Shown: positions 5,571-30,721 of the stretch, piece by piece
Layout: the number at the start of each line of letters is the position of its first letter
Numbering within the stretch: position 1 is the stretch's first letter
Origin: a virus
Lineage: Duplodnaviria > Heunggongvirae > Uroviricota > Caudoviricetes
IMG/VR virus record: IMGVR_UViG_2713896795_000003
Location: 1 to 37,123 of that record
Strand: one strand, 5' to 3'
Length of the DNA: 37,123 nt
Position numbers and translations under genes: made by a program
Notes under the pieces: model-generated
Database searches by the model: none
Told to the model about the DNA's origin: nothing
Seen by the model: the letters and a program-made list of their open reading frames with translations, nothing else

Positions 5571-5610
5571 AGGAAATACTTACATATGGTTCGTGCAAAC
5601 AAACGCAACG
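5565..5610 (-). promoter_or_regulatory. pRE-like CII-activated promoter (TTGC-N6-TTGC)
   Basis: Minus strand TTGCGTTTGTTTGC (plus 5595-5608) overlapping cII start, as in lambda pRE. Confidence 0.45.
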
Positions 5611-5879
5611 AGGCTCTAAGAATCGAGAGTGCGTTGCTTAACAAAATCGCAATGCTTGGAACTGAGAAGACAGCGGAAGCTGTGGGAGTTGATAAGTCGC
5701 AGATCAGCAGGTGGAAGAGGGATTGGATTCCAAAGTTCTCAATGCTGCTTGCTGTTCTTGAATGGGGCGTCGTCGACGACGATATGGCTCGATTGGCACG
5801 ACAAGTTGCTTCGATTCTCACCAATAAAAAACGCCCGGCGGCAACCGAGCGTTCTGAACAAATCCAGATGGAATTCTGA
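5586..5879 (+). CDS. cII: CII transcriptional activator (lambda type, 97 aa)
   Basis: [47 protein letters not shown]... matches lambda CII from memory; the ORF-track start at 5499 is an extension through nutR. Confidence 0.9.
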
Positions 5880-5900
5880 GGTCATTACTGGATCAATCCA
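5824..5900 (-). ncRNA. oop: oop-like antisense RNA (placed by analogy with lambda)
   Basis: cII 3-prime end and the following ~30 bp resemble the lambda oop/pO region; minus-strand GC-rich hairpin followed by U-run near 5825-5850; coordinates approximate. Confidence 0.4.
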
Positions 5901-5911
5901 CAGGAGTCATT

Positions 5912-6058
5912 ATGACAAAACAACTCAGTCCTTACCAGGACAAAATTCACAAACACATACTACGTGATCGCTTCCTGTCCAGCTTCAAGCAGCCTGGTCG
6001 ATTCCGGGCTGAGTTGGAAAAAGTGAAGCTGATGCAGAAGGAGAAAGGTCATGAGTAA
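5912..6058 (+). CDS. Small hypothetical protein (48 aa)
   Basis: Hand-translated [21 protein letters not shown]...; AGGAG SD 7 nt before ATG; stop overlaps O-like gene start. Confidence 0.45.
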
Positions 6059-6911
6059 TCTTGCAACCGTAACACATTTAAGGCCTTCACAACGGCCTGT
6101 GGAGCGTCGTGTGGCAGAAGTTGAAGATGGTTATACCCGTCTTGCAAATGCCCTGTATGAAGAGCTTATCGGCGCAGATTTAACGAAAAATCAGAGCAAG
6201 GTTGCCCACGCCATATGCCGTAAAACATACGGCTACGGTAAAAAGATGGATCGCATTTCTGATAGTCAGTTAGCTCAAATTACCAGGCTGCCAAGACAGA
6301 AGGTAAACAAGGCCAAGAATGAGCTTATCGCGATGAAGGTTATCCTTCGCGAAGGCCAGCAAATCGGGCCTAACAAGAACATCGAAGAATGGCAAATCGA
6401 AGGGTGTCACTACTCTGGTGATAATGTCACTGCATTGGTGACAAAAAGTGTCACCAAAACGGTGACAGCGCTGTCACCAAAACAGGGACACACAAAAGAA
6501 ACTATTACAAAAGAAAAAAGAAATAATAAAAACACTATGTCCGAAAGTGTTCGGACGGAGTGTGAAAAATCATCTGACCGTCACGAAGAAACCGACAAGG
6601 CATTCGAGGAAATATTCTGGTGTGCAGGCATGCGGAAAGCCGGGAAGAAAAACGCGGCTTCGGCATTCAGAACACAGTTCAGGGAATGGCGTAAAACTAC
6701 CAGGGGTACGGCAAGCGAGTTTGCCACGATGCTGGCAGAAGACATCGCATGCAGGAATGGTAAGCAGTTCGGATTCGACAGGTTGTTACCATCGAGCTAC
6801 CTGAACGGTCAGCGCTGGAACGACGAGAAGCCAGAAACTATTCAACCACAATCCAAACCATCATCCGCAATCACCGTATCGAAAACTGGCTACGTGTTTT
6901 TCGACAGGTGA
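6051..6911 (+). CDS. Replication initiator, lambda O-like N-terminal domain
   Basis: N-terminal [36 protein letters not shown]...[13 protein letters not shown]...[11 protein letters not shown] resembles lambda O; iterons lie inside the gene; C-terminal half unlike lambda O. Confidence 0.8.
6405..6535. repeat. Replication origin: four TGTCAC(C)-N5/6-GGTGACA iterons plus AT-rich tract
   Basis: Repeats at 6405-6490 (e.g. TGTCACCAAAACGGTGACA) followed by ACAAAAGAAACTATTACAAAAGAAAAAAGAAATAATAAAAACAC, inside the O-like gene as in ori-lambda. Confidence 0.7.
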
Positions 6912-30488: not shown

Positions 30489-30658
30489 TTTGCTTGGATG
30501 CAGTAGTCAAAGAGATTGTGCTTACCATTTTGAGACCAAATTTTGTTCATGGCGAATCATTTGGCGCGAACGAAAAATTGAGAAGAGAAAGAGTATTCAG
30601 TGGCAAGCGCACGTTTTCAGAAGTGATGCTTGATGCGGCAAAGAAATCAAAACAGTGA
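30485..30658 (+). CDS. Hypothetical small ORF (57 codons, GTG start)
   Basis: GTG overlaps arc stop (GTGTGA) with G-rich SD; no ATG alternative; may instead be non-coding spacer. Confidence 0.2.
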   Translation: MICLDAVVKEIVLTILRPNFVHGESFGANEKLRRERVFSGKRTFSEVMLDAAKKSKQ

Positions 30659-30721
30659 AGCCCCAACTGCGGGAACAGTCAGGGCTTCGGTATCGTAAAA
30701 CCACGCATAGGAATTAACGAC
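30645..30721 (-). ncRNA. sar: Candidate sar-like antisense RNA covering the ant translation initiation region
   Basis: Minus-strand promoter -35 TTGATA (plus 30751-30756), 17-nt spacer, -10 TATACT (plus 30728-30733); minus-strand hairpin GAAGCCC...GGGCTTC (30657-30688) followed by U-rich tract. Confidence 0.4.

Follow-up and report, generated by a model that had tools for sequence, protein, structure and literature searches.

In several lambdoid phages, the lysogeny decision (cII/oop) meets replication at a small gene of the early operon known as orf48. The orf48 genes of P22 (P22gp50, NP_059609) and HK022 (AAB60271), together with hkaW of HK620, belong to one family (PF10872) and have the same length of 48 codons. 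In P22 and HK022, the gene has the same place after cII/c1 and oop, and it overlaps the start of the replication initiator (gene 18 in P22 and O in HK022) by the same 8 nt. The annotated order in P22 is c1, oop terminator, oop promoter, orf48, gene 18 and gene 12, and the CDS note in the HK022 GenBank entry (U02466) reads 'sequence well conserved in phage p22; orf48 gene product; unknown'. According to Hayes et al. (PMC3349717), orf48 is naturally absent from lambda, and its slot is filled by hkaW in HK620 and by gp53 in HK97. Gp53 of HK97 (HK97p43) has 53 aa, starts in the oop/p_o linker with the same Shine-Dalgarno (SD) sequence and ATGACAAA as orf48, and overlaps O by 14 nt; by eye, its peptide is unrelated to orf48 after residue 3, and on that basis it is not a DUF2740 member. 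In lambda, the same SD (ACAGGAGTCATT) and ATGACAAA form the start of O. The published description of this region (PMC3349717) is consistent with that assignment.

The stretch of DNA analysed here, called the window below, is the whole 37,123 nt of the IMG/VR virus record IMGVR_UViG_2713896795_000003 (Caudoviricetes). Compared with P22 and HK022, nothing essential differs in its orf48 region, and its downstream initiator is a different O-like allele. In contrast to lambda, where the start opens O directly, the start in the window opens orf48, and the initiator begins 139 nt further on at an overlapping ATG. The features of the immediate neighbourhood are as follows.

5586-5879, plus strand: cII, encoding a lambda-type CII of 97 aa (Pfam PF05269 Phage_CII, 163.2 bits; PHROG 191), with the start at 5586 assigned from its full-length alignment with the CII profile
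about 5901 to 5825, minus strand: putative oop antisense RNA, placed by homology, overlapping the 3' end of cII, with a terminator stem at 5828-5855 and a T run
5902-5906, plus strand: SD of orf48, AGGAG, read in the sequence, with 5 nt spacing to the ATG at 5912
5909-5937, minus strand: putative p_o promoter, placed by homology with P22, with an extended -10 TGTCATAAT at 5909-5917 and a weak -35 TGGTAA at 5932-5937
5912-6058, plus strand: orf48 (DUF2740), 48 sense codons from the ATG at 5912, then TAA at 6056-6058
6051-6058, plus strand: stop/start overlap of 8 nt, ATGAGTAA, between the orf48 TAA and the O-like ATG at 6051
6051-6911, plus strand: O-like replication initiator of 286 aa (Pfam PF04492, 128.8 bits; PHROG 277)

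The gap between the end of cII and the orf48 ATG is 32 nt, and the initiator has a good SD of its own (GGAG, 6040-6043, 7 nt spacing). The first-pass annotation of this DNA had described a genuine small gene with a good SD, lying between cII and the O-like gene and overlapping the start of the latter with its stop, and the coordinates bear out each part of that description. Nevertheless, a 48-codon ORF alone is weak evidence, since 68 ORFs of at least 25 aa lie in the 5.5-kb stretch around it; thus, the case for orf48 rests on comparative evidence.

The same annotation had seen no obvious family, a view that has to be given up. The product scores 99.4 bits with Pfam PF10872 (DUF2740), where the cut-off is 27, and its residues 6-48 align to profile positions 1-43 of 43; with PHROG 1913 it gives E = 2.7e-28 over profile positions 1-48 of 48. 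It is identical to the P22 orf48 protein at 41 of 48 residues (85%), and by blastn the DNA shares 99.4% identity with the orf48 region of HK022. The HMM match, the identity to the founding members and the early-right position ahead of, and overlapping, the initiator all place the window gene in this family. The 48-codon ORF is orf48 of P22 and HK022, already known and annotated since the 1980s-90s. A blastn search with positions 5880-6080 returned 329 phage records, including HK022, Stx1 and Stx2 phages, mEp phages and Sf101, and the 147-nt sequence is carried by 400 of 5426 complete RefSeq E. coli genomes, in which PGAP routinely names the product 'DUF2740 family protein'. Being routinely annotated, the gene is not a discovery, and as a discovery it would matter little: it went on record with the sequencing of the replication regions of P22 and HK022, and a Pfam family exists. 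However, about 7% of complete E. coli genomes contain orf48, as do Stx-converting phages, and few uncharacterised genes of the lambdoid early operon are as widespread.

An exhaustive profile search of 1.84 billion representative proteins gave essentially one 50%-identity cluster and a few short relatives, with no tie to any larger or characterised protein; the family is thus narrow and enterobacterial. The orf48 product had no match in an NCBIfam scan, in a PDB sequence profile search, or among the PADLOC anti-phage defence models at E <= 1. The literature on DUF2740, PF10872 and hkaW yielded no functional study, and neither an orf48 experiment nor a ribosome-profiling or proteomic report of its translation was found. 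Two namesakes were set aside: the equation of orf48 with gnarl1 (Silas et al. 2025) was rejected, as the number comes from that paper's library and the gene belongs to lytic phages, and the ORF48 entries in a Citrobacter rodentium prophage paper are unrelated.

The putative oop RNA and its promoter lie across the start of orf48. The oop region has a stable fold (z = -2.75), and the 5' end of the RNA was placed by homology with lambda oop. The P22 annotation 'oop terminator/promoter; similar to phage lambda' also supports the placement, and OOP was detected in the P22-like prophage BTP1 (PMC7067206). Rfam is without an oop family, and an Rfam scan of the whole window gave no oop match. A sigma-70 consensus scan did not call p_o, whose placement is by homology with the P22 annotation, where the oop promoter runs from -3 to +26 of orf48, the same position as the putative p_o of the window. 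A hybrid p_o with a lambda -10 and a P22 -35 was described by Hayes 2012 (PMC3349717). The overlap of p_o with codons 1-9 would explain the nucleotide conservation of the first orf48 codons.

Selection on the reading frame and linkage to the initiator

The first search gave 80 loci that all encode the same protein and were of no use for dN/dS; searches using divergent members widened the set to 187 loci with orf48. These contain 37 distinct alleles, all 147 nt long, with no indels and no internal stops. Variable sites fall at codon positions 1, 2 and 3 in the numbers 17, 17 and 34, and dN/dS is 0.27 in the annotated frame (Nei-Gojobori, summed over all pairs), whereas the other two plus-strand frames give 1.57 and 1.05. 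Within the gene, dN/dS is 0.11 in the core (codons 17-39) and 0.37 and 0.53 at the two ends, and synonymous variation is present at conserved codons. Two distant members of 46 aa (P0056 and P0061), placed on contigs, are saturated at synonymous sites (pS 0.8-0.9, pN 0.3-0.4), yet they keep the motif HKxI[LI]RDx[FL]L...RxE[LW][ED]xVK, parts of which fall outside the arms of the RNA helix treated below. Complete, uninterrupted copies have 46-48 codons, and an SD-like sequence stands 5' of the ATG in nearly all unrelated upstream contexts. On this evolutionary evidence, orf48 is a genuine protein-coding gene under purifying selection, and its translation into protein seems probable. The first-pass annotation had named conservation of the frame and dN/dS among relatives as the way to check the ORF, and both now speak for it.

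The protein of 48 aa has a net charge of about +6 and a predicted helix at residues 7-23, a QPG turn and a second helix at residues 28-44. AF2 models it as a basic helical hairpin (pLDDT 79.8), and fold searches with this model gave no informative structural match. Rare variants in the protein database (the P0001, P0039 and P0036 set) carry internal duplications, with 58 aa where FLSSFKQP is repeated and 54 aa where KLKLKLT is inserted, and P0036 shows a local frameshift followed by restoration. Thus, helix 1 or 2 tolerates some length change in individual genomes.

On its right side, orf48 is bound to the initiator with great regularity. All 187 loci have an ATG placed so that the last 8 nt of orf48, stop codon included, overlap the next gene; in the two distant members the overlap is 4 nt (ATGA) and 8 nt. 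The downstream initiator begins with MSN (MDN in locus L008) and comes from at least two unrelated families, one O-like (PF04492) and one of the HK022-O type, which is without a Pfam match. In contrast, the left side varies: identical orf48 alleles adjoin at least five different cII/c1 alleles, the orf48 loci have 11 different upstream neighbour clusters, and at about 15 loci other genes, such as a ParB-HTH gene, a methyltransferase, a YdaT-like gene and one with a weak sliding-clamp-like match, stand between cII and orf48. Likewise, one distant member has a 249-aa gene between cII and the DUF2740 gene. Since the overlap is kept at 187 of 187 loci while the upstream genes vary, orf48 is tied to the replication module and not to cII. 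The label 'cII-replication junction' given by the first-pass annotation is therefore right for the window and for the replication half of the name, but adjacency to cII is lost at the loci with other genes after cII.

The borders of the gene can also be read from where homology ends. Between phages with different initiators, homology stops exactly at the orf48 stop codon. The conserved segment on the left (cII 3' end, oop, SD and ATGACAAA) is common to HK97, where it opens Gp53, and to lambda, where it opens O itself. Bounded by mosaic joints on both sides, orf48 is thus a discrete cassette that functionally goes with the replication module. That it is so strictly linked to the start of the initiator, in phages with different initiator families, is a modestly new point.

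Genes inserted to the left of orf48 were seen in the L128/L154 group, the L093 group, L184, L090, L179 and L194, with about 3 kb of upstream sequence compared. As extra genes between cII and orf48 occur in a minority of related prophages, the left border of orf48 seems to be a hotspot for the insertion of accessory genes.

A predicted helix over the initiator start

Coupled overlapping cistrons with a masked downstream ribosome-binding site (RBS) are known from other systems, for example the coat and replicase genes of MS2. The orf48 mRNA is predicted to share the features of this type: a paired downstream SD and AUG, a stop/start overlap and an accessible upstream start. The difference is that in the window these features are predicted only, with modest covariation. 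The helix concerned was predicted by RNAalifold and has two arms.

5963-5976, plus strand: 5' arm, codons 18-22 of orf48, CGUGAUCGCUUCCU
6040-6053, plus strand: 3' arm, containing the initiator SD (GGAG, 6040-6043) and AUG (6051-6053)

The mRNA at 5895-6085 folds better than its shuffles (MFE z = -2.96), and RNAalifold on the 37 alleles recovers the helix 5963-5976/6040-6053. Across the 37 alleles, 99% of the helix cells are paired, none of 500 shuffles reached the observed pairing or covariation score, and slid registers of the arms all score far lower. Two compensatory pairs occur: 9 alleles have A-U in place of U-G, and 7 have U-A in place of C-G. Over 73 distinct native contexts, the mean unpaired probability is 0.04 for the initiator AUG versus 0.62 for the orf48 AUG, a degree of inaccessibility (<=0.05) found for 4 of 29 start codons in the window. 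Masking of the initiator AUG is likewise predicted for the two distant members, despite their saturated synonymous divergence. In addition, the Arg18 codon, which pairs with the initiator AUG in the window helix, is CGU in 39 of 39 sequences.

Several caveats attach to the helix. Its covariation comes down to about two substitution events, and a C-A mismatch at one helix pair is present in three recombinant alleles. Both arms are also under constraints of other kinds, from the RDR motif of the peptide and from the SD and AUG. The MFE structure of orf48 taken as a whole does not exceed shuffle controls; the RBS-masking helix alone did. Moreover, the initiator has its own good SD (GGAG, 7 nt), and thus it may not depend on coupling. 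The predicted RBS-masking helix is, with these qualifications, a second modestly new point.

If the helix forms, ribosomes would load at the accessible and conserved orf48 SD and ATG, melt the pairing between codons 18-22 and the initiator SD and AUG as they translate, and terminate 3 nt past the initiator AUG. Because translating ribosomes would both open the helix and end so close to the AUG, initiator synthesis would be coupled to orf48; we put the odds of such coupling at about even. If true, coupling would explain how the small gene travels with any initiator allele, and it would offer a handle for tuning the replication of Stx phages.

Taken together, the best explanation is that orf48 is a coding gene that opens the replication module as its first cistron, within the early-right (pR) operon, that its translation may couple initiator synthesis, and that its peptide is separately selected; we give this joint reading a probability of roughly 55%.

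Readings of the orf48 product

Lambda O and HK97 O work without orf48, and orf48 is therefore not required for O-type replication in general. Under the joint reading, the selected peptide would most likely be a dispensable accessory or regulatory factor of the early replication or lysis-lysogeny period, and its target would be something that these phages share, a host factor or nucleic acid, rather than a particular initiator. A more far-reaching version is offered tentatively, as a possibility with the odds against it: in many P22-, HK022- and Stx-type phages, orf48 might exert a two-in-one control, in which its translation unmasks the initiator RBS, so that initiator dosage follows the ribosome traffic through a start set atop the convergent oop promoter, while the hairpin peptide separately acts on the common host factor or nucleic acid.

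One alternative holds that orf48 is purely a leader, whose translation delivers ribosomes and opens the initiator RBS and whose peptide has no function of its own. The strictly conserved overlap and the predicted masking helix would be expected of such a leader, and in HK97 this site is taken by the unrelated 53-aa Gp53, which shares the SD and ATGACAAA with orf48 and overlaps O by 14 nt. Likewise, the distant member L192 keeps the RBS and the overlap while the frame of its C-terminal codons is shifted against the initiator ATG, and dN/dS is higher at the ends of the gene (0.37 and 0.53). However, a peptide free of constraint would be hard to reconcile with a core dN/dS of 0.11 alongside synonymous variation at conserved codons, with distant members that are saturated at synonymous sites yet keep the two-helix motif, partly outside the helix arms, or with a length fixed at 46-48 codons in complete, uninterrupted copies. 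We consider the pure leader unlikely.

A small regulator of lysis-lysogeny is less probable still, with orf48 acting either as a CIII-like FtsH inhibitor that protects CII or as a Rop-like modulator of OOP/cII antisense pairing. The gene adjoins cII and oop, and its product is a small, basic, helical hairpin. There is also a superficial likeness to lambda CIII, a 'QPG after an amphipathic helix', which was counted in favour of this reading. However, sequence and fold comparisons give no support for CIII or Rop. Kinship with lambda CIII (PF02061) was rejected, as BLASTP gave no alignment at E <= 100 and Pfam did not list the family at E <= 10, and a helical-hairpin RNA-binding protein of the Rop/Rom type was rejected as well, the model showing no structural match to the Rop fold. 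In addition, a CIII-like ORF is already present in the window, at 1759-1929 on the minus strand. This ORF encodes 56 aa (MQQFAIAGAAS...SLLEKLWDILKQQGRP), is lambda CIII-like by eye and, like orf48, falls below the 60-aa ORF cut-off.

It is very improbable that conservation acts at the DNA level only, with the sequence serving as oop promoter or as a linker for recombination between immunity and replication modules and the ORF being incidental. The first 26 nt of orf48 do coincide with p_o, and identical alleles join at least five cII alleles to at least two initiator families, with homology ending at the stop, which is the behaviour of a mosaic boundary. But variation is concentrated at third positions, and dN/dS is well below 1 in the annotated frame only; moreover, the 37 alleles are free of indels, the protein motif is kept in distant members, and an SD-like sequence accompanies the ATG in nearly all unrelated upstream contexts.

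Finally, the reading as a tail protein, taken from PHROG 1913 and many RefSeq phage records and with nothing in its favour beyond the label itself, can be dismissed, because the 48-aa gene has its place in the early-right operon, flanked by cII/oop and by the initiator gene that it overlaps, occurs in phages with different tails (HK022 and mEp, P22 and the window, Stx phages) so that neither its location nor co-variation with tail type fits, and is called hypothetical or 'unknown' in the original GenBank and P22 annotations. The label stands in PHROG 1913, NC_002371 (P22gp50), NC_019706, NC_027398 and NC_008464. Probably a mis-annotation that was passed on from record to record by way of PHROG and RefSeq, it is unsupported and should not be propagated further.

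The phage around orf48

The best genome matches of the window are Kapi1, 720R6 and CUS-3. An Rfam scan of the window gave a single match, the sar RNA, a marker of a P22-type immI (ant) region; this RNA and the best genome matches identify the window as a P22-like prophage. The remaining features outside the orf48 neighbourhood are the following.

30654-30720, minus strand: sar antisense RNA (Rfam RF00262, 76.6 bits against a gathering score of 43)
6405-6490, plus strand, inside the O-like gene: four palindromic iterons of about 19 nt, TGTCAC-N7-GTGACA, spaced 20-24 nt
after the iterons to 6516, plus strand: A-rich stretch with repeated ACAAAAGAAA
7019-8899, plus strand: Toprim and DnaB-like primase-helicase of 626 aa (PHROG 239, E = 1.9e-171), the partner of the O-like initiator

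Judged by their sequence, the iterons and the A-rich stretch are a lambda-style origin within the initiator gene. The initiator of the window is followed by the 626-aa primase-helicase, unlike P22, which has gp12, or lambda, which has a P-type loader; this gene illustrates the shuffling of modules to the right of orf48.
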